From Candidatus Yanofskybacteria bacterium (GTDB lineage: Bacteria > Patescibacteriota > Minisyncoccia > 2-02-FULL-40-12 > IGHO2-01-FULL-4-A), in NCBI GenBank assembly GCA_016181055.1, contig JACOZZ010000056.1, positions 1 through 18,503 of the forward strand: DNA of 18,503 nucleotides, read 5' to 3'. Below, piece after piece: positions 4,091 through 18,088 of the stretch. The position numbers and the translations under genes were made by a program. The stretch's first letter is position 1; every line of letters begins with the position of its first letter. The notes beneath the pieces were generated by a model. It was not told the origin of the DNA. It saw nothing but the letters and a program-made list of their open reading frames with translations, and searched no databases.

Positions 4091-4117
4091 ACCCGCTTAT
4101 TAGCGGGTTTTGTTTTG
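4091..4117 (+). terminator. Rho-independent terminator after nrdJ
   Basis: 7-bp stem acccgct / agcgggt with a 4-nt loop, followed by tttgttttg. Confidence 0.75.
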
Positions 4118-4142
4118 CGATTTTTTACAATTGATGTATAAT
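4115..4142 (+). promoter_or_regulatory. Promoter; the -10 box lies 8 nt upstream of the ATG at 4151 (leaderless or near-leaderless)
   Basis: TTGCGA (4115-4120), a 16-nt spacer, then TATAAT (4137-4142). There is no Shine-Dalgarno before ATG 4151. Confidence 0.5.
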
Positions 4143-4150
4143 TGAGTCAT

Positions 4151-4573
4151 ATGAATTCATGGCTATCAATTTTACTGATCGCGGGTTTTCTGGGCATAGC
4201 CATTTTTGGTTTTATGGGAATGGATGCCAGCGGACACGGCCATATGGATTGCATTGCTACGGCAGTGCAGGGCAAAGTATGCCCCGAAGCGCTTGGTGCC
4301 GCCGGTTTTATTAATTTTCATTTTAATGCTGCCAGGTTTTTCTCAACAGCGGTTTTCGGGTCTTTAGTGATAGCGGTTTTGGCAATGCTTTTAACGCTGG
4401 CTTTAATAACTTTATTTTTAAGCCGATGGCGCGATTTGCCGCTGATTGCAAAATATCGCCTGCCGCAATTTTTATTGGCACCTGCTTCTCTACCCAAAGA
4501 CTCTCTCAATTATTGGTTATTGCTTCACGAAAAACGCGACCCCTCTTACTTTTTTAGCTTCCGGCCGATTTAA
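4151..4573 (+). CDS. Small two-TM membrane protein with an extracytoplasmic His/Cys/Met loop (SGHGHMDC...VCPE)
   Basis: The ORF track starts at TTG 4142, which overlaps the -10 box, so I prefer the in-frame ATG at 4151. Two hydrophobic helices flank a loop carrying HGHMDC and a second Cys. I recognise no family. Confidence 0.55.
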   Translation: MNSWLSILLIAGFLGIAIFGFMGMDASGHGHMDCIATAVQGKVCPEALGAAGFINFHFNAARFFSTAVFGSLVIAVLAMLLTLALITLFLSRWRDLPLIAKYRLPQFLLAPASLPKDSLNYWLLLHEKRDPSYFFSFRPI

Positions 4574-4611
4574 TTAGAGCTTGTCCGCTTTAATTGTCGT
4601 TGGAAGCTTTT

Positions 4612-4638
4612 AGCCGCCCATAAGCGGTTTTTATTTTT
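4612..4638 (+). terminator. Weak candidate terminator
   Basis: 6-bp stem agccgc / gcggtt (one G-U pair), loop ccataa, then tttattttt. Confidence 0.4.
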
Positions 4639-4659
4639 GAGCAATCTTTGATCCATAAC

Positions 4660-5169
4660 ATGAACAATAAAAATATAAAAAGTACGCTCATTTCCGTGGC
4701 TACGATCATTGTTCTTTTTGGGGGTTTAATTTGGCTGTCGCGAAACGAAACCGGAAACGGCGAGGCCAATATAAGCCAGTCCGGCGGCGGAACTCTTTCT
4801 GCTGAAGAAATAAGTTTTGATTTTGGCGCTATCTCAATGGCAAACGGCAAAGTCTCGCATATATTCAAAATAAAAAACGAAAGCGGTGAGCCGGCAATGA
4901 TATCTAAGATTTACACTTCTTGCATGTGTACTGAAGCGACTTTGACGCGCGGCGATAAAAAATCTGGTCCGTTTGGTATGCCAGGGCATAGCGGAATCCC
5001 CAAAATTAATGAGACTATAAACCCTGGAGAATCGGTTGACGTTGAAGCAGTTTTTGACCCGGCAGCCCACGGACCGTCGGGTGTTGGCTTGGCTGATAGG
5101 GTCGTTTTTGTTGAAGACGGCGCTGGCCAGCAATTGCAGCTGAAGTTTAAAGCGATGGTTACCCCGTAA
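4660..5169 (+). CDS. DUF1573-domain (Ig-like) envelope protein with a CxC motif
   Basis: An N-terminal TM/signal anchor is followed by the DUF1573 signature: FDFG..xxG.VSH.F...N.G..P..I....TSCMCT. An insert rich in Met/His (GPFGMPGHSG) is present. I prefer ATG 4660 over the track's TTG at 4648. Confidence 0.7.
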   Translation: MNNKNIKSTLISVATIIVLFGGLIWLSRNETGNGEANISQSGGGTLSAEEISFDFGAISMANGKVSHIFKIKNESGEPAMISKIYTSCMCTEATLTRGDKKSGPFGMPGHSGIPKINETINPGESVDVEAVFDPAAHGPSGVGLADRVVFVEDGAGQQLQLKFKAMVTP

Positions 5170-5228
5170 CGTACATCCCCCCGTAACGCATACGCACGTA
5201 CGTTACGGGGTCCGTATGCGTTACGGGG
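5162..5228. repeat. Four-copy interleaved inverted repeat of CCCCGTAACG
   Basis: 5162-5174 is the exact reverse complement of 5198-5210 (13 bp). 5179-5194 is the exact reverse complement of 5213-5228 (16 bp). All four copies share the core ccccgtaacg / cgttacgggg. The TAA stop of the upstream gene (5167-5169) lies inside copy 1. Confidence 0.85.
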
Positions 5229-5250
5229 TTAATCCCTAGTTTTCACCACT

Positions 5251-6030
5251 ATGCAGAAAAAATTAATTATTTTAATTATCGCCGGTATCGTATTATTGTC
5301 GGTGATTTTGCTGTTTCGTTTTAGCTTAGGAACTACGACGCTATGGAGATTGTCTGATGGGGGAAAATGGCTCTTTCCGCTTGTTACTGTTGCCGCCTTG
5401 GTTGATAGCATTAATCCTTGCGCCTTCTCAATACTGCTTTTGACCATTGCCTTTTTGTTCAGCGTGGGGCGGCTGCGTTCCAATATTCTCAAGATAGGCG
5501 GTGTTTATATTCTCGGCATATTTCTGGCCTATCTTCTGATCGGCTTAGGTTTGCTGCAGGCACTGTATATTTTCAATACCCCGCATTTTATGGCAAAAAT
5601 CGGGGCGGTGCTGCTGGTTGTCTTCGGATTGCTTAACGTTTTTGAAGTTATCTGGCCAAGATTTCCCATAAAATTACACATTCCCCACTCCGCTCACCAC
5701 AAAATGGCGGGCCTGATAGACCGGGCGAGCATACCCACGGCATTTATGCTCGGCGCGTTGGTCGGCGTTTGCGAGTTTCCCTGTACTGGAGGACCCTACT
5801 TGGCAGTACTCGGCTTGCTCCATGATTCAGTTACATATTTGAAGGGGTTTGGCTACCTGGTCTTCTATAATGCCGTATTTGTCTTGCCGTTAGTTATAAT
5901 TCTCTCCATCGCGTCTAACCAGAGCGTGTTGGAAAAAGTCCAAGCCTGGCAAAATCAAGAACGCAAACAAGAACGTCTGATTGCCGGCGTTTTGATGGCA
6001 GCACTCGGGGCCCTAATATTCCTGCTATGA
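5251..6030 (+). CDS. ccdA: CcdA/DsbD-family transmembrane thiol:disulfide electron transporter
   Basis: Polytopic membrane protein with the two conserved membrane-embedded Cys motifs of the DsbD_2/CcdA family: DSINPCAF, and CEFPCTGGPY in the second half. Confidence 0.8.
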   Translation: MQKKLIILIIAGIVLLSVILLFRFSLGTTTLWRLSDGGKWLFPLVTVAALVDSINPCAFSILLLTIAFLFSVGRLRSNILKIGGVYILGIFLAYLLIGLGLLQALYIFNTPHFMAKIGAVLLVVFGLLNVFEVIWPRFPIKLHIPHSAHHKMAGLIDRASIPTAFMLGALVGVCEFPCTGGPYLAVLGLLHDSVTYLKGFGYLVFYNAVFVLPLVIILSIASNQSVLEKVQAWQNQERKQERLIAGVLMAALGALIFLL

Positions 6031-6482
6031 TTACTGCAATAATTTTAATCGCAATAATTTCCGGGACCTTTATCATATTGAATTGGTTTTTGCCGTTCAA
6101 AATTTGTCCAATTTGCGCCGGTGTAAGCGGGAGCTGGCTGATACTGACCGCAGGTATCGTGTTTGGCCAATGGCCGGGGGATTATAAATTACCTATCGCA
6201 ATGCTGATGGGCGGGACAGTAGTAGGGATTGCCTTTCAGGGCGAAGCGAAGTTTGGCTGGGCAAAAAAAAGCATCTATACGTGGAAAGCGCCGGTTATTA
6301 TCTTTGGCATGCCTGTAGCATTTTGGTTGTTAAAAAATATGAGCCCGACAATATTCGTGGCAGAAGTAATCTCGTCGGTATTATTAATTTATGTATTTTT
6401 CATCAAATCATCACGCTCGGGCGATCGTGTTGACAGCGGGCACGTTACCGAACTGGAAAAAAAGATGAAAAATTGTTGTTAA
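6027..6482 (+). CDS. Four-TM membrane protein with a CPIC (CxxC) motif at the end of TM1 and a C-terminal ...NCC
   Basis: Its ATG overlaps the ccdA stop (ATGA at 6027-6030), implying translational coupling. The hydrophobic profile is clear. I recognise no family. Confidence 0.55.
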   Translation: MITAIILIAIISGTFIILNWFLPFKICPICAGVSGSWLILTAGIVFGQWPGDYKLPIAMLMGGTVVGIAFQGEAKFGWAKKSIYTWKAPVIIFGMPVAFWLLKNMSPTIFVAEVISSVLLIYVFFIKSSRSGDRVDSGHVTELEKKMKNCC

Positions 6483-6483
6483 T

Positions 6484-7467
6484 ATGTTTGATAATATTCT
6501 CAGAAAAGAATTTATGAAGAAAATAATGACCCGAATAATAGGCGCGGTAAAGACGCAGGAATTTTTGGGTGCATTGAGCATAGCTTTGGCGGTGGGGATT
6601 GCCGTTTATGCCCTTGTTGATTTAGATGTAACCGTGGGACGCGGGCCGATTTTATCCAAGCTTTTCGGTACCGCTGAAGAGAGGCAAGAGCGGTTGGCTC
6701 AAAAACAACTTGCTTTGCTTGAAGCAGCGGTTCTGCCGCAAGGCGGGGCGGTATTACCGGTTATTTGGAGCGATTTAGGGAGACAGCTGGCGGAGTCGGG
6801 CGTCATTGATGCCGGTAAGTTTGAAAAACTTTATGAGTCTCGCGGCGGCCTGAACGAAGAAGACAAAAAACTATTGTACGGCGCCGGCAATGGGAACCTT
6901 AGGATAACCGAACAAAATTCAGGCTTACTGTTAAATTTGTTATGGGCTTTGGGTTTGGGCAATAAAAACGAAATTTTGGAAAAGGGCCCGATGATGGATA
7001 AAAGTTTTGGCGGGGCAGACAGATTTGCTTCTACTGGTGGCTGGTCGCTGGCCGAAGGTAATATTATGCAGCACTACAGTATGCATCGTTTTCTGAACCT
7101 GACACCGGAACAGCAGGAATTAGTCCAGCGAGTAAGCTTGAATATTTTTCGCCCATGCTGCAATAACCCGACCTATTTTCCTGATTGTAATCACGGCATG
7201 GCTATGTTGGGATTTTTGGAGCTGATGGCTTCGCAGGGAGTTGGCGAGGAAGAGATGTATAAATCCGCGCTTGCGGTTAACGCATTTTGGTTTCCCGACA
7301 ATTATCTGACAATTGCTAAATATCTGGAATCTAAGGGTTTAAACTGGGGTAAAACGGAACCGAAAGCGCTTCTCGGGGCCAATTTTTCAAGTGCCAGCGG
7401 TTATAAGCAGATATTGACGCAAGTTAGTCCGCCCACTCAGCAAAGCGGCGGCAGTTGCGGAATATAA
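6484..7467 (+). CDS. Membrane-anchored exported protein with the Cys/His motif PCCNNPTYFPDCNHG and a C-terminal GGSCGI
   Basis: It starts 1 nt after the upstream stop. It has one N-terminal TM anchor (FLGALSIALAVGIAVYALV) followed by a soluble domain of about 270 aa. The CC-x8-C-x-H cluster is the most distinctive element. I recognise no family. Confidence 0.6.
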   Translation: MFDNILRKEFMKKIMTRIIGAVKTQEFLGALSIALAVGIAVYALVDLDVTVGRGPILSKLFGTAEERQERLAQKQLALLEAAVLPQGGAVLPVIWSDLGRQLAESGVIDAGKFEKLYESRGGLNEEDKKLLYGAGNGNLRITEQNSGLLLNLLWALGLGNKNEILEKGPMMDKSFGGADRFASTGGWSLAEGNIMQHYSMHRFLNLTPEQQELVQRVSLNIFRPCCNNPTYFPDCNHGMAMLGFLELMASQGVGEEEMYKSALAVNAFWFPDNYLTIAKYLESKGLNWGKTEPKALLGANFSSASGYKQILTQVSPPTQQSGGSCGI

Positions 7468-7503: not shown

Positions 7504-7531
7504 TTGAAAATTAAGAAGGGGGTGATAGAAT
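7504..7531 (+). promoter_or_regulatory. Promoter with extended -10; the ATG lies 6 nt downstream (leaderless)
   Basis: TTGAAA (7504-7509), a 16-nt spacer ending in TGa, then TAGAAT (7526-7531). Six nt (cggagt) follow before ATG 7538. Confidence 0.5.
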
Positions 7532-7537
7532 CGGAGT

Positions 7538-9355
7538 ATGCCATTTGAACGTCCACAATCGGAGGCGAAAATTGAACGCGAGAAGGAACATTCGTTTTTT
7601 GAGCAAATCGGCAGGCCGGAACTGAAAGAAAAACTAACACCCAAAACACCCTGGGCGTATTTCACGATGGAAATATACGGGAATGGAATAAGGGGTGGCG
7701 GTGGTTTGGGAATCCTTGCGGCGGATACGTTGGAAACTATGAGAAAGCTCGAAATACCCTCGGTTTTTATAACGCCGTTTTATACAAAAGAAAGAGCGCA
7801 GGGGTTTGAGGGATTTGAACAGAGAATTAAATTTACTAGCGTCAAGCCGGAAAAACGTGGATTTAAACCAACCGGCTCATCAGTTACCGTAAGAGAGGTT
7901 GTAAACGGAAAGCCGGATTCAACGGAACTTCAGGTATACCAGAAACAAGAAGGAAGCGCTGTCTTGCTTACAATAACTGAAAAAAACTTTGGCGCGCTTT
8001 ATCAGGGCGAGAACAACAGTGACCACCGGCTTTATCAGGAAATCTCGCTTGGATTTGGCGGTTGGCAGGCAATGAGGAAGTTAGAAATGGAGCCGCCGGT
8101 TCAGCAGTTAAACGAGGCGGCTACGGTATTTTCAGCGATTGCCGCTCTTGATGAAAAAACACAAGAACTCGGCGATTTCAAACGGGCGCTTCATGAGATA
8201 AGCGAGTGCGCCATTTATACAAATCATACATTAGTCCAAGCTGCCGAGGCCAATTTCTCTATTGACCAGTTTGAGCGGTTTGTAATGCCTAATATACAAA
8301 GCGATGCCGTAAAGGTTTGGCTTCGCGAACTGTTCAACAATGATAGTATCAAGTTGAGTACCTTAGCTATAGAACTTGCCGGCAAAAAGAACGGGGTCAG
8401 TCAGATTCACGCGCGCGAATCCAGTAAAACCTACAAAGATCATCAGGGAAAAAATGTGGAATTTGAGGGAATCACCAATGGCATTGCTTTAGACCGTTGG
8501 GGGAATCCGGAGCTTCTTGCATATTATCGCGAGCAGGGCATTCTTGATGAATTTGACTTGCCATCGCCGGACTTTGAGAAAAAAATACAATCTCTGGACC
8601 TGGAAAAATTAGAAGAAATAAAAGAGCGTGCCCGCACAATCACGCGCGATGTTTTGAAAAAACACAAAAACCAATACGGCCAGTCAGTAAATATACCCCT
8701 GGAATCAAAAATATACGATTGGAAACGGAGAATAGCGGAATACAAACGGCCGGGTATGATTTTTGAACATTCTGATGAACTGGCAAAAATTCTTGAAGAA
8801 CGCGACGCATATTTGGTGATGGCGGGTGAAGCACATTCGGCCGATAAACCAATGCAGGAAGAATTGAAAAGGATATTCAAGATTATTGATGCCAACCCGA
8901 TTCTCAAAAAACGCGTGCATTTTGTTAAAAACTATAATGAGGTATTGGCCAAAACTTTGGCGCAAGGAGCTGATGTATCGCTCAATACGCCGCGCGTCAG
9001 AAACGAGAAGGGGGAGCGTATCAGCACTGAGGCCTGCGGTACCTCATGGGAAAAGGACATTCTTGGCAATACAATCTTGATTTCTACGCCTGATGGCGGG
9101 GCGGCCGACTTGGAAGTGCGCGCGGGAGGCAAGGAAACCGGAGAGACACCGCCATTTTTGGAAATAAGCGGCAAAAATTACAACGAAGAAGTCGTTTCGC
9201 TCTATGGACAAATGCGCCAAGCGGCGGATTTACTGGACGATAAAGAAAAAAAGGCGGAATATCTTAAGCGTCAGCTGGCGAGTTATCTGCCTATTATCTC
9301 CGGCGCCCGCATGGAAGAGGATTACTTAAATCTCGGCTTCCCGCCGGAAAATTAA
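7538..9355 (+). CDS. glgP: GT35 alpha-glucan (glycogen/maltodextrin) phosphorylase, short form
   Basis: Family motifs appear in order: GGGGLGILAADT, YTNHT, KNGVSQIH, ITNGI, WKRRIAEYKRP, and EACGTSWEK (the PLP-lysine segment, canonical EASGTSxMK) followed by the STPDGGA equivalent of GTxDGAN. Confidence 0.75.
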   Translation: MPFERPQSEAKIEREKEHSFFEQIGRPELKEKLTPKTPWAYFTMEIYGNGIRGGGGLGILAADTLETMRKLEIPSVFITPFYTKERAQGFEGFEQRIKFTSVKPEKRGFKPTGSSVTVREVVNGKPDSTELQVYQKQEGSAVLLTITEKNFGALYQGENNSDHRLYQEISLGFGGWQAMRKLEMEPPVQQLNEAATVFSAIAALDEKTQELGDFKRALHEISECAIYTNHTLVQAAEANFSIDQFERFVMPNIQSDAVKVWLRELFNNDSIKLSTLAIELAGKKNGVSQIHARESSKTYKDHQGKNVEFEGITNGIALDRWGNPELLAYYREQGILDEFDLPSPDFEKKIQSLDLEKLEEIKERARTITRDVLKKHKNQYGQSVNIPLESKIYDWKRRIAEYKRPGMIFEHSDELAKILEERDAYLVMAGEAHSADKPMQEELKRIFKIIDANPILKKRVHFVKNYNEVLAKTLAQGADVSLNTPRVRNEKGERISTEACGTSWEKDILGNTILISTPDGGAADLEVRAGGKETGETPPFLEISGKNYNEEVVSLYGQMRQAADLLDDKEKKAEYLKRQLASYLPIISGARMEEDYLNLGFPPEN

Positions 9356-11515
9356 ATGTTAATAAATAAAATTTATACCTGTCCGATGCATCCGGAGGTA
9401 CAGAAAACCGAGCCCGGCAAATGCCCGGGGTGCGGGATGGACCTTATTCTTAAGGAAGTTGGCGGAGGCGTAACGGACTATGATGTTTCGGAGTTGAGCC
9501 ATAGGGAGCACGAAGCGGCAATGACAAATCCGCAGATGGCTAAGAAAATGGAACAGGATATGCGCCGAAGATTTTGGGTTTCGTTTCTGCTTTCAATCCC
9601 CATTTTTCTATATTCCCCGGTCGGAATTAATTTTTTCAAGCTCAATCTTCCAACGCCAATCCCGATAAACTGGCTGCTTTTAATTTTAACGACCCCGATA
9701 GTATTTTGGACCGGCTCAATTTTTATTACGGGGACTTATTATTCGCTCAAGGCGCGCAAGCTTAATATGTCGGTTCTTATCGCTACTGGTGTTTTAGCGG
9801 CATATCTTTTCAGTATTTTGCTGACCCTAGCGCGGCCAGAGTCGGAAACATTCTACGAAGCGGCAGCTTTGTTGGTTACCTTTGTACTCTTTGGCCATTG
9901 GATGGAAATGAAATCCCGACGCGGCACATCAGACGCGCTTCGCGCGCTCTTTGACCTTGTTCCGCCGCAGGCGAAGGTTATTCGTAATGGAAAAGAAATT
10001 ACAATTCCAAGCGCCGAAATCATACACGACGATATCGTGGTTCTGCGTCCAGGCGACAAAGTTCCGGTGGATGGCGTTGCGATGGAAGGGGAGAGCGCAA
10101 TTGACGAATCGTTGGTTACAGGCGAGTCAATTCCGGTTGTTAAAAAAATAGGCGATAAAGTTATAGGCGGTTCGGTAAATCAAACGGGTACGATTAAATT
10201 TAAGGCAACCCAAGTTGGCTCGGAAACTGTGCTGGCTCACATAATCAAGCTCGTTGAAACGGCGCAAAATTCCAAAGCGCCGGGTCAGCGCATTGCCGAC
10301 AAAGCGGCAGGTTGGCTGGTGATAGTCGCGATTAGTTCGGGACTGGCAGCATTTTTTGGCTGGTATTTCGGCGCCGGGAGCGGGCTTATCGTGTCGCTTA
10401 CTTTTGCTGTTTCAACGGTGGTAATTGCCTGTCCGGACGCGCTTGGGCTTGCTACTCCTACGGCAGTCGCCGTAGGCACGGGTATTGGCGCTAAATACAA
10501 CATTCTTATAAAAGATGCGGCAACGCTTGAAAATACTTCGCGGATAAATGCCATTATTTTGGATAAAACTGGAACGCTAACCGAGGGAAAGCCGAAGGTT
10601 ACCGATGTTGTGGCGTTCAACAACTTTAGCGAACAGGAATTGCTCAAATATGAAGCCAGTCTCGAGGCCGGTTCCAATCACCCGCTTGCCAAAGCTATCC
10701 TAGAAGAGACCAAAAGACGCGATGCTCTGCCGCTTAAGCCAATGGAAAATTTTGAATCTGTCGCTGGCCGCGGGCTTAAGGCGAAAATCAGCGGCAAGAT
10801 TGTTTTAGCCGGTAATGAAAAATTGCTCCGAGACAATGGCATTGCCACCGAGCCGATGAAAGATACTCTTGACCGGCTTGCCGGCGAGGGGAAGACATTG
10901 AGCTTATTGGCAATTGATGGAATCTTTGCCGGGGTTGTTGCTGCGGCCGACCCGTCCAGAACTAATTCCAAAAAAACCGTTACCGCTCTCAAGAATCTGA
11001 ATATGGAAGTGGTAATGATTACTGGTGATCATACGAAAGTGGCGGAAGGCATCGGAAGAGAACTGGGCATTGATCGCGTGTTTGCCGAAGTGCCTCCCGA
11101 AAATAAGGCAAAATATGTCAAAAAATTGCAGGACGAGGGCAAGTTTGTGGCGATGGTGGGGGACGGCATCAACGACGCGCCGGCGATGGCCCAGGCCAAT
11201 ATCGGCATCGCCATCGGTGCCGGCACCGATGTCGCTATTGAAACCGGCAATATCGTGCTTATGAAATCTGACCCGTACGATATTGTGGCGGCGATTCGCT
11301 TAAGCAAGGCCACGGTTGTAAAAATGAAACAAAATCTTTTTTGGGCAGCAATATACAATATGCTGGCTATTCCGGTTGCCGCCGGAGCATTCTACACTTC
11401 GCTTGGTTGGTCGTTGCGTCCAGAGATCTCCGCGCTACTGATGTCGGCATCGTCAATTATCGTTGCTACTAATGCTATATTATTAAAACGGGTTGAGCCC
11501 AAGCTTAAAGTATGA
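9356..11515 (+). CDS. copA: P1B-type heavy-metal (copper-type) translocating ATPase with an N-terminal CPMHPE-type metal-binding domain
   Basis: Motifs present: TGES, DKTGTLT, ITGDH, GDGINDAP, TM5 YNMLAIP (YN-x4-P) and TM6 MSASS (MxxSS). TM4 reads CPD rather than CPC. The N-terminus is YTCPMHPEVQKTEPGKCPGCGMDL. The ATG directly abuts the TAA of the upstream gene. Confidence 0.9.
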   Translation: MLINKIYTCPMHPEVQKTEPGKCPGCGMDLILKEVGGGVTDYDVSELSHREHEAAMTNPQMAKKMEQDMRRRFWVSFLLSIPIFLYSPVGINFFKLNLPTPIPINWLLLILTTPIVFWTGSIFITGTYYSLKARKLNMSVLIATGVLAAYLFSILLTLARPESETFYEAAALLVTFVLFGHWMEMKSRRGTSDALRALFDLVPPQAKVIRNGKEITIPSAEIIHDDIVVLRPGDKVPVDGVAMEGESAIDESLVTGESIPVVKKIGDKVIGGSVNQTGTIKFKATQVGSETVLAHIIKLVETAQNSKAPGQRIADKAAGWLVIVAISSGLAAFFGWYFGAGSGLIVSLTFAVSTVVIACPDALGLATPTAVAVGTGIGAKYNILIKDAATLENTSRINAIILDKTGTLTEGKPKVTDVVAFNNFSEQELLKYEASLEAGSNHPLAKAILEETKRRDALPLKPMENFESVAGRGLKAKISGKIVLAGNEKLLRDNGIATEPMKDTLDRLAGEGKTLSLLAIDGIFAGVVAAADPSRTNSKKTVTALKNLNMEVVMITGDHTKVAEGIGRELGIDRVFAEVPPENKAKYVKKLQDEGKFVAMVGDGINDAPAMAQANIGIAIGAGTDVAIETGNIVLMKSDPYDIVAAIRLSKATVVKMKQNLFWAAIYNMLAIPVAAGAFYTSLGWSLRPEISALLMSASSIIVATNAILLKRVEPKLKV

Positions 11516-11712: not shown

Positions 11713-12183
11713 ATGATTTCGCAATTCTTAACTTATAAACCGGTACTAATAGGGTTGCATTTGGGTTTTGCGATTGTCGGTATAGACGCTTTTTTGTGGT
11801 ATTTGGGGGAACTGGCCGGCAAGTCACAGAATCACACCAGGATTAGATGGGCTTCCATAATCGGCGTAACCGGTTTTGCTTTAAGCTGGCTAGCCGGCGG
11901 ATATTATTACGTTGTTAATTATGGCAAATTAGTCAAGCCGATTATTCTTAAGGGCACGGCACCGTGGGCTCATGCCATTGCGATGGAGGCAAAAGAGCAC
12001 ATCTTTCTGTTCATAATTCCGTTAGCATTGACCGCGGTTTTTTTGACGTTTCTAGGTAAAGAAGATTTTGAGAAAAATAACTTACGCCGAGTCACAATGG
12101 TTTTAGCTGGACTAATCGCGGGTCTGGGGCTGGCGATTGGGGCGATGGGATTCATAATTTCAGCCGCCGCTAGGTGGGGCTAG
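11713..12183 (+). CDS. Four-TM membrane protein, unknown family
   Basis: The 156-aa ORF has four hydrophobic segments and a conserved-looking loop, PWAHAIAMEAKEH. I see no clear Shine-Dalgarno. Confidence 0.55.
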   Translation: MISQFLTYKPVLIGLHLGFAIVGIDAFLWYLGELAGKSQNHTRIRWASIIGVTGFALSWLAGGYYYVVNYGKLVKPIILKGTAPWAHAIAMEAKEHIFLFIIPLALTAVFLTFLGKEDFEKNNLRRVTMVLAGLIAGLGLAIGAMGFIISAAARWG

Positions 12184-12203
12184 CAACCTCGCTGGGGTTG
12201 CAA

Positions 12204-12557
12204 ATGGTGATAGAGGGCATTATTCGCCAAGTCTATAAGCAAATGAAGAACTTGAAACTAACTTTTTCATCTTCAATAGCCGCTTCACTATCAGTAATTA
12301 CAATTACTGTGATTACCATTTGGGGCGAGCTTTCGTCTCCATTTAAGGCATGGCTGGCCGGTTTTACCGGCCATCACTGGCTAACCAAAAGCGTACTGTC
12401 GCTTATAGTTTATTTCGGGGGGCTGGCTGTGTTTTATTTACTGCCAAAAAACATGGGTCCCAAGACTATTCGCAGGGGATTGATATTTTTAATTATAATT
12501 ACATTAGCCGGCTCGCTGGCGGTGTTTTTATTTTTCGTCTGGCACTATGTGGTATAG
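12204..12557 (+). CDS. Membrane protein, unknown family (start uncertain)
   Basis: The track ORF begins at GTG 12174, overlapping the upstream stop. In-frame ATGs lie at 12204 and 12243. Three hydrophobic segments and a GHHW motif are present. Confidence 0.5.
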   Translation: MVIEGIIRQVYKQMKNLKLTFSSSIAASLSVITITVITIWGELSSPFKAWLAGFTGHHWLTKSVLSLIVYFGGLAVFYLLPKNMGPKTIRRGLIFLIIITLAGSLAVFLFFVWHYVV

Positions 12558-13068: not shown

Positions 13069-13830
13069 ATGGACATAATCCAATTATTTATTTTGAGTAT
13101 TTTAGAGGGTTTCACGGAGTTTTTGCCTATCTCATCAACGGCCCATCTTATTTTAGCGTCCCGGTTATTTCAATTGGGTGAGTCAGAATTTTTAAAAAGT
13201 TTTATGATCGCCATTCAGTTCGGCGCGATATTGGCTGTTATTTTTCTTTATGCGCGGCGGCTGGCAAAAGATTGGGAGATCGGCAAAAAAATACTTGTGG
13301 CCTTTTAGCCGACGGCAGTGATAGGTTTTTTGCTGTATAAAATAATCAGGGGAGTTTTATTTGAAAGCCCCCTAGTAATTATTGCAGCATTGTTGATTGG
13401 TGGTGTTGCATTAATAATTTTTGAGATGCTGTTCAAGGAAAAAGAAACCCACGTTGCTGATATGAGAGATATTACTTATGCCCAGGCGTTTGCAGTCGGT
13501 TGTGCCCAGTCATTGGCGGTTATACCCGGCGTATCGCGTGCAGCGGCAACTATCATAGGTGGGATGTTCGTCGGCATAAAACGGGTGGCGATAGTTGAAT
13601 TTTCTTTTGTTTTGGCCGTTCCGACAATGGCCGCGGCGGCCGGTTATGACCTTTTTAAAAATGCGGGCGGATTTACGCCCAGCCAATTTTATTTGTTAGC
13701 GGCAGGGTTTGTTATTTCCTTTTTCGCCGCTTTGCTTGGCGTAAAATTTCTGCTTAATTTGATAAGACATCATTCATTCACGGGATTTGGAGTTTACCGG
13801 ATAGTTGTAGCTCTTATATGTTTGACTTAA
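13069..13830 (+). pseudogene. uppP: Undecaprenyl-diphosphate phosphatase (UppP/BacA) interrupted by a single in-frame TAG at 13306-13308
   Basis: The N-terminal ORF carries [15 protein letters not shown]. The C-terminal ORF carries PGVSRAAATI and EFSFVLAVP. Both are in the same frame and join as ...ILVAF*PTAVIGFLL, which is colinear with E. coli ...LLGMIPAVVLGLLF. Confidence 0.8.
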
Positions 13831-17392: not shown

Positions 17393-18088
17393 ATGAATTT
17401 AAAAAAGAATTCGGTAATTTATTCTACAATTTTAGCCCTTGCTGTTTTTGGAATGCTTGGGTGGTCCTTGGCAATAAATAGGGGCGGAGAGGTAAGAGCT
17501 GACGATGAAAACAATACGACAGTTGACGAGGAAACATTGGAAGATCTCTATGAGTCCGTTTTCCATCGGCCGGCTGACGCTAGCGGCAAGGCATTTCACC
17601 GCGGCCGTAAGTTGAAAGACGTCCTAAGGGATTTCAAGAATTCCCAAGAGATGAGATATTACGGAGCTTTGTTCAAGGCAGTAAAATCATACGAAGAAGC
17701 TCAGCGCGCGCCGGGCACTTTAACCGAAACAGAAAAACAAAGCTACCTAGACCTTATAGATTCGGCTTTGTCTAATTTACTGGCTTGGGTCGCGACATTG
17801 CCAGATCAAGATGCCTGTAAGGGCACAGTCGGTGCTATTGAGGCTAGAGATGCTATTCAAGCTGCTTATGACGGTATGAGTCCGGTTGCAAGAGCTGCCG
17901 CGGAAAAGGGGATTTTCAAGGCTCTCAAGGAACTGGGCAAACCAAGAAATCTCGCCGTACATCCAAAATGCTTGAGAATGCCAACTCCATCTGTGTCGCC
18001 GTCCGCATCACCAACCGCCATTCCGACCGCCACTCCTACTGCTACTCCGACTCCTACAGCCACGCCGACGCCGACAGCTACTCCTTAA
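17393..18088 (+). CDS. Membrane-anchored/secreted protein with a DUF4214-like segment and a C-terminal Pro/Thr-rich tail
   Basis: An N-terminal hydrophobic anchor (VIYSTILALAVFGMLGW) is followed by LYESVFHRPADASGKAFH, which resembles the DUF4214 motif LY..(L/F).R..D..G. The last 35 residues are a PT/PS repeat. Confidence 0.55.
   Translation: MNLKKNSVIYSTILALAVFGMLGWSLAINRGGEVRADDENNTTVDEETLEDLYESVFHRPADASGKAFHRGRKLKDVLRDFKNSQEMRYYGALFKAVKSYEEAQRAPGTLTETEKQSYLDLIDSALSNLLAWVATLPDQDACKGTVGAIEARDAIQAAYDGMSPVARAAAEKGIFKALKELGKPRNLAVHPKCLRMPTPSVSPSASPTAIPTATPTATPTPTATPTPTATP
17981..18085 (+). repeat. Imperfect tandem coding repeat encoding (T-P-T-A / S-P-S)n
   Basis: The DNA reads as degenerate ACN-CCN-ACN-GCN units (ccgaccgccactcctactgctactccgactcctacagccacgccgacgccgacagctactcct) and encodes PTPSVSPSASPTAIPTATPTATPTPTATPTPTATP. 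Confidence 0.75.

Follow-up and report, generated by a model that had tools for sequence, protein, structure and literature searches.

What is the role of a row of envelope proteins bearing cysteine motifs when one of them is a CcdA-type electron transporter and no thioredoxin-fold partner is in sight? The question is raised by an 18,503-nucleotide (nt) contig of Candidatus Yanofskybacteria (Patescibacteria, or candidate phyla radiation [CPR]), which was analyzed over its whole length and is called the window below. Five consecutive genes on its + strand encode the proteins that we call p143, the DUF1573 protein, CcdA, p151, and p327. The original prediction for this locus had offered either a noncanonical redox relay or a copper-handling module. 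We hold, with moderate confidence, that together they form the core of a conserved envelope copper-stress module. It would act with CopA, the Cu(I) pump whose gene starts 1.9 kb downstream. Literature searches (DUF1573; Patescibacteria with copper; CcdA with CopA) found no account of such a module. The features that carry the argument are as follows.

4142..4573, + strand: p143, small protein with two transmembrane (TM) segments; open reading frame (ORF) without a Pfam or NCBIfam match
4648..5169, + strand: DUF1573 immunoglobulin-like (Ig-like) anchored protein of 173 amino acids (aa); Pfam DUF1573, 1.7e-13
5251..6030, + strand: CcdA-family membrane thiol-disulfide transporter, 259 aa; family profile against Thermus CcdA
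6027..6482, + strand: p151, five predicted TM helices, CPIC and terminal CC; AlphaFold2 (AF2) model and family alignment
6484..7467, + strand: p327, N-terminal anchor and a mostly helical outward domain of about 250 aa; family alignment and AF2 model
9356..11515, + strand: CopA-type P1B copper ATPase; NCBIfam TIGR01511, 559.5 bits against a cut-off of 397

Five same-strand genes for membrane or exported proteins, their cysteine motifs, and translational coupling of the last three had been claimed from the sequence, and all were recovered. The ccdA and p151 genes overlap by ATGA (6027-6030), p151 and p327 are separated by 1 nt (6482/6484), and copA starts 1889 nt after p327, in agreement with the predicted distance of about 1.9 kb. 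The motifs are CIATAVQGKVCP in the p143 loop (4250-4285), TSCMCT (4915-4932) and GPFGMPGH (4966-4989) in the DUF1573 protein, NPC (5413-5421) and CEFPC (5770-5784) in CcdA, CPIC at the inner end of TM2 (6105-6116) and CC (6474-6479) in p151, and PCCNNPTYFPDCNH (7153-7194) and a terminal SCGI in p327. Judging by their conservation across the family alignments, the cysteine motifs are non-random. The 151-, 259-, and 327-aa proteins are identical to NCBI records HYT65_03355 to HYT65_03365, all of which are annotated “hypothetical protein.”

Linkage of the gene set to CopA in related loci

One genome per species was scanned, which gave more than 590 loci encoding p327; 80 were kept, and the ORFs called in them were searched with profiles. 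Of these loci, 78 are labeled Patescibacteria/CPR or unclassified bacterium, and the other two (L047 and L075) bear the label uncultured Gammaproteobacteria. The order p143–DUF1573–CcdA–(p151 or an alternative protein ending in CCDE)–p327 recurs on one strand among these species-level genomes. When we considered the 27 p327 loci with complete 10-kb flanks, a CopA-type ATPase was encoded within 10 kb of p327 in 26, p143 and DUF1573 in 22 each, a DsbD-family gene in 21, and a CsoR-family repressor in 16 (Pfam Trns_repr_metal, 1.5e-17). Across all 80 loci, the spacing between CopA and p327 was ≤150 bp in 12 and ≤1 kb in 26. Metagenome contigs fetched with the DUF1573 CxC subfamily provided an independent anchor: among the 39 loci judged downstream, CcdA followed in 36 and p327 in 32, and p143 preceded DUF1573 in 51 of the 60 judged upstream. 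The linkage to ccdA, whose absence the original prediction had named as telling against it, and that to DUF1573 are strongly conserved from both the p327 and the DUF1573 anchor.

Taken together with the fusion of p327 to an HMA domain and the recurrence in another phylum described below, this linkage and the metal-responsive regulators indicate that the gene set is tied to copper export. The copper-handling alternative is the one that gained decisive support, from CopA in 26 of the 27 loci, from the frequent CsoR/CueR regulators, and from the HMA fusion.

Other genes that recur in these islands encode DUF5676, SHOCT, DUF302, DUF3105, DsbA-like, and VKOR proteins. The CsoR-family repressors of the islands (L078 7419-7691 and others) mostly have one Cys and an HLxTH motif, giving a C-H-H pattern, and a minority have HLxxC, giving C-H-C. 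The C-H-C fingerprint is typical of CsoR.

The p327 family

The p327 family is large: more than 5800 matches were obtained with 90% clustering, and grouping at 50% identity gave 726 clusters; 38 diverse Patescibacteria homologues share 52-76% identity with the window protein. C225, C226, C235, H237, and C325 are invariant in 39 sequences, and the invariant features include FASTGGW, RPCCxNxxxFPDCNHG, and the Cys of a C-terminal GGxCG tail. The AF2 model (mean predicted local distance difference test [pLDDT] score, 85.9) is mostly helical, with lower confidence in the Cys loop and a disordered tail. Foldseek returned no PDB match with E <1 for this model, p327 and its family profile gave chance-level matches or none against PDB sequences, and no family, thioredoxin included, was matched in Pfam or NCBIfam.

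A thioredoxin fold was considered for both p151 and p327 and was rejected, as the AF2 models are mostly or entirely helical and no match was found by Foldseek/PDB, Pfam, or NCBIfam. By the same four approaches, neither protein has the ordinary thioredoxin, DsbB, or VKOR fold that the original prediction had singled out as decisive against it.

One reading of the p327 motif is that of a 3Cys-1His iron-sulfur protein like CDGSH/mitoNEET, which would serve as an outward-facing electron carrier. We take the CCx3Tx2PxCxH pattern of p327 to resemble the CDGSH motif loosely, and some homologues carry Tat-like signals. Nevertheless, this identity was rejected by the lack of a Pfam zf-CDGSH match and by the spacing, CCx8CxH in p327 against CxCx2(S/T)x3PxCDG(S/A/T)H; moreover, the predicted fold is helical, and the Patescibacteria p327 proteins are without Tat signals, so that a cluster would have to be assembled outside the cell. 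We consider this reading highly improbable.

The domains fused to p327 are informative about its context. One relative (P0248) has an N-terminal HMA domain (GMTCPSC; PF00403, 1.3e-16) ahead of the p327 anchor. Some 20 of the 150 family representatives reach lengths of 430-552 aa; in the five of them whose sequences were read (P0275, P0280, P0290, P0302, and P0313), a polytopic N-terminal domain of about 200 aa with CxVCG is fused to p327, and the CxVCG motif is matched by 7 of the 150 representatives. An exported rhodanese domain is fused to p327 in three of the 150, and a BNR propeller in one. A DsbC_N match was seen in one family member, which was not re-found in two further scans. An SCC-H-type domain is fused to p327 in P0256; in the islands, a stand-alone form of this domain is frequently encoded after p327.

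In about 18 loci, a membrane protein of about 147 aa with the TM motif MISCCAHxL is paired with an exported protein of about 152 aa (GPGGHHREG), usually just after p327 (e.g., L073 12531-12974 and L067 11452-11910). Neither has a Pfam family, and the membrane protein resembles the N-terminal domain of P0256.

CcdA and its outward partner

The 259-aa protein had been predicted to be a CcdA/DsbD-type transporter, and the sequence comparison indicates that it is a genuine CcdA homologue. A 35-member profile of its family matches Thermus thermophilus CcdA (5vkv) over its full length (E=3e-14, residues 44-258 to 2-199), with both active-site cysteines aligned: NPC (C57) with SPC and FPC (C178) with TPC. 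C57 is invariant in the family, as is an additional Cys, C174, in CEFPC. Pfam matches to DsbD_2 and DUF1573 had been expected. DUF1573 was matched; for the window CcdA, the one model passed is SfLAP, a member of the same clan (37 bits, with the cut-off at 35), rather than DsbD_TM. Among the 35 CcdA homologues, DsbD_TM was matched in 13 (E <=0.01) and SfLAP in 22.

The neighboring DUF1573 protein, which had been described as carrying a CxC motif and a GPFGMPGH insert, matches PF07610 well above the gathering score (50.8 bits against 26.1; profile positions 2-52 of 98), and the rest of it weakly matches a HYDIN/VesB Ig-like model. A weak match to the NCBIfam OS_HP2 (seleno)protein was also found (5.7e-6), and a PDB sequence search gave chance-level matches or none. 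In its subfamily, TSCxCT (C92 and C94) is invariant, and GPFGMPGH and DPAAHGP are conserved. The probable start codon is ATG 4660 rather than the upstream TTG. A selenocysteine form of the DUF1573 family with a UGC motif is listed in a review (PMC9312934).

The distribution of partners among related loci is orderly. The PC-type CcdA is always accompanied by DUF1573 (35 loci), and an alternative DsbD_TM protein with APCC/CCAP, here called DsbDcc, occurs with an AhpC/redoxin-fold protein in 11 loci and with DUF1573 in 8. DUF1573 and redoxin are found together in one locus only, which has two modules. This mutual exclusion suggests that DUF1573 occupies the position of the thioredoxin-fold partner, and the protein is a candidate outward-facing partner of CcdA, a Cu(I) ligand, or both.

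The absence of a thioredoxin-fold partner, a central point of the original prediction, holds for this window but not for the module. When frames open for >=60 codons were searched with the patterns [WFY]CxxC and C[GP][HPY]C, no thioredoxin-type CxxC motif was found in the window, and tblastn found no relatives of Trx, DsbA, VKOR, or CsoR there. In related loci, however, the gene for a small anchored thioredoxin-like protein (WCxHC) closely precedes p327 in 13 of 39 DUF1573-anchored loci with sufficient downstream sequence and in 6 of the 27 fully flanked p327-anchored loci, and AhpC/redoxin proteins occur as described above. Because these genes lie inside related modules, the system is not intrinsically thioredoxin-free. 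A role in cytochrome c maturation was rejected: as claimed, no such genes were found in Pfam scans of 20 of the larger ORFs of the window, nor were there any among the recurrent neighbors of the p327 loci.

These partners raise the possibility of a general system for disulfide reduction or isomerization in the Patescibacteria envelope, in which p327 and p151 would be redox rather than metal proteins and copA would be nearby merely through a shared stress island. The genuine CcdA of the window fits this idea, as do the VKOR, DsbA-like, thioredoxin-like, and redoxin genes that recur in the islands and the existence of a selenocysteine DUF1573 form, given that selenocysteine/cysteine pairs usually mark redox-active sites. 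The DsbC_N match in one p327 relative also agrees with it. It does not account for the abutment of p327 and CopA in many loci, the position of p327 after the ATPase in a cueR-led Burkholderia array, or the HMA–p327 fusion. In addition, vicinal CC pairs typify the ligands of soft metals and not redox disulfides, and the p151 cysteine motifs are predicted to lie in the cytoplasm, where no CcdA substrate would sit. We regard a purely disulfide-directed system as improbable.

p151, its alternative, and p143

The 151-aa protein had been described as having four TM segments; the AF2 model (pLDDT 82.8) instead predicts five TM helices, followed at the C terminus by an amphipathic helix that ends in CC. 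C27, C30, C150, and C151 are invariant in the p151 family. No family, thioredoxin, MerT, MerC, MerF, DsbB, or VKOR included, was matched in Pfam or NCBIfam, and Foldseek against PDB gave no hit with E <1 and no DsbB or VKOR chain. The identification of p151 as DsbB/VKOR was rejected on the five-TM model, the lack of Foldseek/PDB or Pfam matches, and the predicted cytoplasmic location of its cysteine motifs. Membership of MerT/MerF was also rejected, as the Pfam/NCBIfam searches were empty and merely the Cys pairs and the CC tail are reminiscent of those proteins. In P0251, p151 is fused directly to the p327 anchor, which places its CC tail in the cytoplasm, and from this fusion both cysteine motifs of p151 would face the cytoplasm.

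Between ccdA and p327, p151 is found in 21 loci and a protein ending in ...DCCDE in 21, and both in none. The CCDE protein (L003 6239-6775, L047 1120-1635, and 19 other loci) is soluble, helical, and about 170 aa long, and ends in ...LVDCCDE. It carries conserved LSLAIMNLISLEEHFFFTG and NEGETWCISKHLL and has no Pfam match. It substitutes for p151 at this position, and the two share a C-terminal amphipathic helix followed by CC.

In p143, the two cysteines of a Cx9CP pair (C37 and C47) are kept in >=95% of 55 sequences, and the His residues are not conserved. According to the positive-inside rule, the Cys loop would face outward.

Relatives outside Patescibacteria

Homologues of p327 were detected by tblastn on ten Burkholderia/Paraburkholderia plasmids (E values between 1e-30 and 1e-19), and each bears a hypothetical annotation; p143, p151, and the SCC-H membrane protein had no match on plasmids by the same method. 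The plasmid p327 homologues retain all five Cys/His residues, and they start with twin-arginine (Tat-like) motifs, indicating that the domain is exported.

On a Burkholderia contaminans plasmid, a gap of 70 bp separates the p327 homologue from a preceding P1B ATPase gene. This ATPase shares its N-terminal CPMH...CPxCG domain with the window CopA and also has CPC and MSLSS. The same-strand array starts with cueR, two small hypothetical genes (one Met-rich), DUF2933, CcdA (CC type), redoxin, and thioredoxin, and ends with isoprenylcysteine methyltransferase, peroxiredoxin, the ATPase, the p327 homologue, and an S-adenosylmethionine (SAM) methyltransferase. The redoxin is of the same family as that in the Patescibacteria variant module. 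In Burkholderia thailandensis and Paraburkholderia fungorum, the homologues are located in islands with DUF411, SCO, TlpA, CcdA, HMA proteins, MerR-type regulators, and a bufferin-like operon.

In each of the three plasmids examined, the immediate neighbor of the p327 homologue is a class I SAM-dependent methyltransferase gene (L161 9919-10485, L162 8066-8683, and L163 8865-9479). The bufferin-like DUF2282–DUF692–DoxX operon of B. thailandensis lies about 5 kb from the p327 homologue.

Homologues of the TSCMCT DUF1573 protein were found on Jiella and Sinorhizobium plasmids, between TlpA/DsbE and SCO and close to CcdA, DUF411, PCuAC, and a P1B ATPase. The genes for 300-316-aa proteins upstream of them were considered as divergent p327 and were rejected; they encode BNR/Ycf48-like propellers and were not matched by the p327 profile.

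The main rival to a copper-stress module, compared with which the others are weaker, holds that the genes mature a cuproprotein or another cofactor protein rather than detoxify copper: p327 would be an enzyme with a Cys3-His copper center, CopA would supply the metal, and CcdA and DUF1573 would reduce the ligand cysteines beforehand, as TlpA and Sco do for the CuA site of cytochrome oxidase. The very high conservation of p327, with many invariant polar residues besides Cys and His, agrees with this, as do the Tat-type signals of its proteobacterial homologues, which are typical of exported proteins containing cofactors, and the SCO, PCuAC, and TlpA genes of the proteobacterial islands. TlpA reduces Cu-ligand cysteines ahead of metallation (PMC7558416). 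Nevertheless, no catalytic fold or known enzyme family was detected for p327, no candidate substrate is evident, and the linkage to CsoR/CueR-type regulators and other genes of the metal islands speaks for a stress response. Cofactor maturation is, in our estimate, unlikely.

A further reading is that the module handles a thiophilic species other than copper, Hg(II) or Ag(I) for example, or serves as a relay for persulfide sulfur. The vicinal CC tails are like those of MerA, MerT, and MerF; merA, merB, and merT are present in the P. fungorum and Jiella islands; and sulfur transfer is brought to mind by the 3/150 rhodanese–p327 fusions and by three DsrE genes near the P. fungorum homologue. However, there are no mer genes among the conserved families of 160 Patescibacteria loci, the pump scores as a copper-type ATPase, and in Burkholderia the regulator carries the annotation Cu(I)-responsive CueR. 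A ligand other than copper appears very improbable to us.

The pump encoded downstream

The window CopA has an N-terminal CPMH...CPGCG metal-binding domain (Pfam HMBD 1.4e-11) and the motifs YNx4P (YNMLAIP) and MSASS. Its CPx motif is CPD, in the sequence ACPDALG at 10427-10447 (CopA residues 358-364), where CPC or CPH is the norm for P1B pumps. In the CopA genes of 160 related loci, CPC was counted 32 times, CPH 26 times, and CPD 17 times, which indicates that CPD recurs as a variant in Patescibacteria rather than reflecting an error.

One gene lies between p327 and copA.

7538..9355, + strand: alpha-glucan phosphorylase gene; NCBIfam TIGR02094, 194.3 bits against a cut-off of 191.7
7504-7531: promoter-like site ahead of the phosphorylase gene; pattern match

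The stop codon of the phosphorylase gene abuts the copA ATG (TAAATG, 9353-9358). Because this gene was present in 0 of the 80 related loci, it is regarded as an insertion specific to this lineage.

Downstream of copA, at 11713-12557, are the genes of two small membrane proteins of 156 aa and 127 aa, neither of which has a family match. The same pair follows copA in L008 and L032, and it may be an accessory of the pump.

Proposed function and comparison with known systems

The copper-stress module that we favor would work as follows. CopA would export Cu(I) from the cytoplasm, and p327, anchored beside it and proposed here as its Cu(I)-handling partner, would receive, hold, or process the ion through a putative outward Cys3-His site and a swinging tail Cys. 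At the inner face of the membrane, p151 would capture cytoplasmic Cu(I) through its CxxC and CC tail and pass it on; elsewhere, this role would be taken by the soluble ...DCCDE protein or, in one relative, by the HMA domain fused to p327. CcdA would carry reducing equivalents outward and keep the cysteines of DUF1573 (CxC), p143 (Cx9C), and p327 reduced, so that these surface cysteines could bind Cu(I) and wrong disulfides formed by copper catalysis could be undone. In this window, DUF1573 would stand where the variant modules have a thioredoxin-fold redoxin. The family memberships, the conserved residues, the gene linkage, the fusions, and the lack of thioredoxin, DsbB, and VKOR folds are observed; that copper is bound, how the proteins sit in the membrane, which way the ion is passed, and which proteins are redox partners is inferred.

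Several observations weigh against this scheme. The predicted topologies of p151 and p143 rest on prediction and one fusion protein. The conservation of p327 goes far beyond that usual for a simple metal-binding protein, suggesting an enzyme. Most of the CsoR-like regulators of the islands have the C-H-H pattern, so the metal they would sense is not settled, and CPD in place of the canonical CPC leaves the metal specificity of the window CopA uncertain. The window itself encodes no copper-sensing regulator, and the phosphorylase gene splits p327 from copA. Finally, the rhodanese fusions and DsrE neighbors hint at sulfur chemistry, and the VKOR and DsbA genes of some islands suggest a broader role in thiol redox.

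The system is of the copper-linked envelope thiol type and is built largely from unnamed families. The logic of the proposed scheme parallels that of Scs (PMC10907172, PMC8900818), of the TlpA-dependent reduction of Cu-ligand cysteines, and of CopG (PMC7558416). In Salmonella, Proteus, and Caulobacter, the copper-linked Scs system combines a DsbD-like ScsB with ScsC/ScsD, and Caulobacter ScsC binds Cu(I) very tightly (PMC10907172, PMC8900818, PMC3322552). The likeness, under the scheme proposed here, is that of two copper-linked envelope thiol systems with a DsbD-family membrane protein as the source of reductant for exported Cys proteins, and it is a functional resemblance only. The window encodes no ScsC/ScsD-type thioredoxin-fold protein, its transporter is a minimal CcdA in contrast to the multi-domain ScsB, its partners (DUF1573, p143, p151, and p327) belong to unrelated families, and the module is physically tied to CopA. 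Membership of Scs was rejected because a DsbD-family protein is present but no thioredoxin-fold gene is encoded in the window.

With the pairs of CcdA and ResA, StoA, TlpA, or CcmG, the module shares a homologous transporter with both catalytic cysteines, and related loci pair a DsbD_TM-type CcdA with AhpC/redoxin. It differs from them in that the window is without cytochrome c maturation genes and that the adjacent Cys protein is an Ig-like DUF1573 protein with CxC, not a CxxC thioredoxin. A likeness to DUF1573 may be seen in the alpha domain of DsbD, which is Ig-like and has a redox-active Cys pair reduced by the thioredoxin-like gamma domain. Both are Ig-like non-thioredoxin domains with a Cys pair and a DsbD-family membrane domain as companion. 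However, DUF1573 is a polypeptide of its own, the two have no detected relationship in sequence, and a counterpart of the gamma domain is not encoded in the window.

For p327, the comparison is with CopG (DUF411), a periplasmic CxCC copper-cluster protein linked to copA/cus (PMC7558416). Both are exported Cys-rich proteins with a vicinal CC and a genetic link to copper exporters, and DUF411 genes share the Burkholderia islands with p327 homologues; CopG, however, is small with a thioredoxin-like fold, whereas p327 has a mostly helical domain of about 250 aa and no detectable relative of solved structure. For p151 and the CCDE protein, the proposed position at the inner membrane face next to the pump, presenting Cys pairs, recalls CupA and CopZ/HMA proteins; CupA is a precedent for a membrane-anchored chaperone, and one p327 relative has a true HMA domain in the p151 position. 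In contrast to these, p151 is polytopic (five predicted TM helices) and is without homology to HMA or cupredoxin folds.

Signals and remaining genes of the window

The following signal-like elements lie around p143.

4091..4108, + strand: terminator-like hairpin with a T-run after the ribonucleotide reductase gene, taken as the upstream module boundary; pattern match
4115..4142, + strand: promoter-like site TTGCGA-16-TATAAT; 10/12 consensus matches
4612..4629, + strand: hairpin with a T-run in the p143–DUF1573 gap, which may be a terminator or an attenuator; pattern match only

The first two elements suggest that p143 starts at ATG 4151, and this is probably the start rather than the upstream TTG, the mechanical start codon that the -10 box TATAAT (4137-4142) overlaps. 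The -10 box ends nine bases before this ATG. Promoter-like sites in the region are no commoner than in shuffled sequence; if the site were real, the ATG would, speculatively, lie only a few nt from the transcript start, leaving almost no leader. Rfam and tRNA scans of the window gave no matches.

Farther downstream, an undecaprenyl-diphosphatase gene (BacA/UppP, 13069-13830) is split into two ORFs, which match Pfam profile positions 2-63 and 97-257. The split falls at an A-run near 13285-13292 and is either a frameshift from a sequencing error or the mark of a pseudogene. An exported 231-aa protein with no family match (17393-18088) has a Pro-Thr-Ala repeat at its end (PTATPTATPTPTATPTPTATP).

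Significance for Patescibacteria and the p327 family

To our knowledge, how copper exported by CopA is received and detoxified outside the cell is largely unknown in bacteria without a Cus-type system, and we know of nothing on this subject in Patescibacteria. The module has been retained despite the reduced genomes of these bacteria. It gives a testable, copper-linked context to several unnamed families: p327 with its 726 clusters, p151, p143, the ...DCCDE protein, and the DUF1573 CxC subfamily. As a bolder and tentative proposal, which we put at clearly less than even likelihood, p327 may be the founding member of a new family of Cu(I)-thiolate proteins that are exported, are perhaps enzymes, and act as the dedicated outside partner of P1B copper pumps in Patescibacteria and some Proteobacteria, with DUF1573 replacing the thioredoxin-fold acceptor of CcdA and p151 replacing CopZ as copper chaperone at the inner face. 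The presence of p327 homologues in CueR/CopA operons on plasmids of culturable Burkholderia makes genetic testing possible without growing a Patescibacterium.

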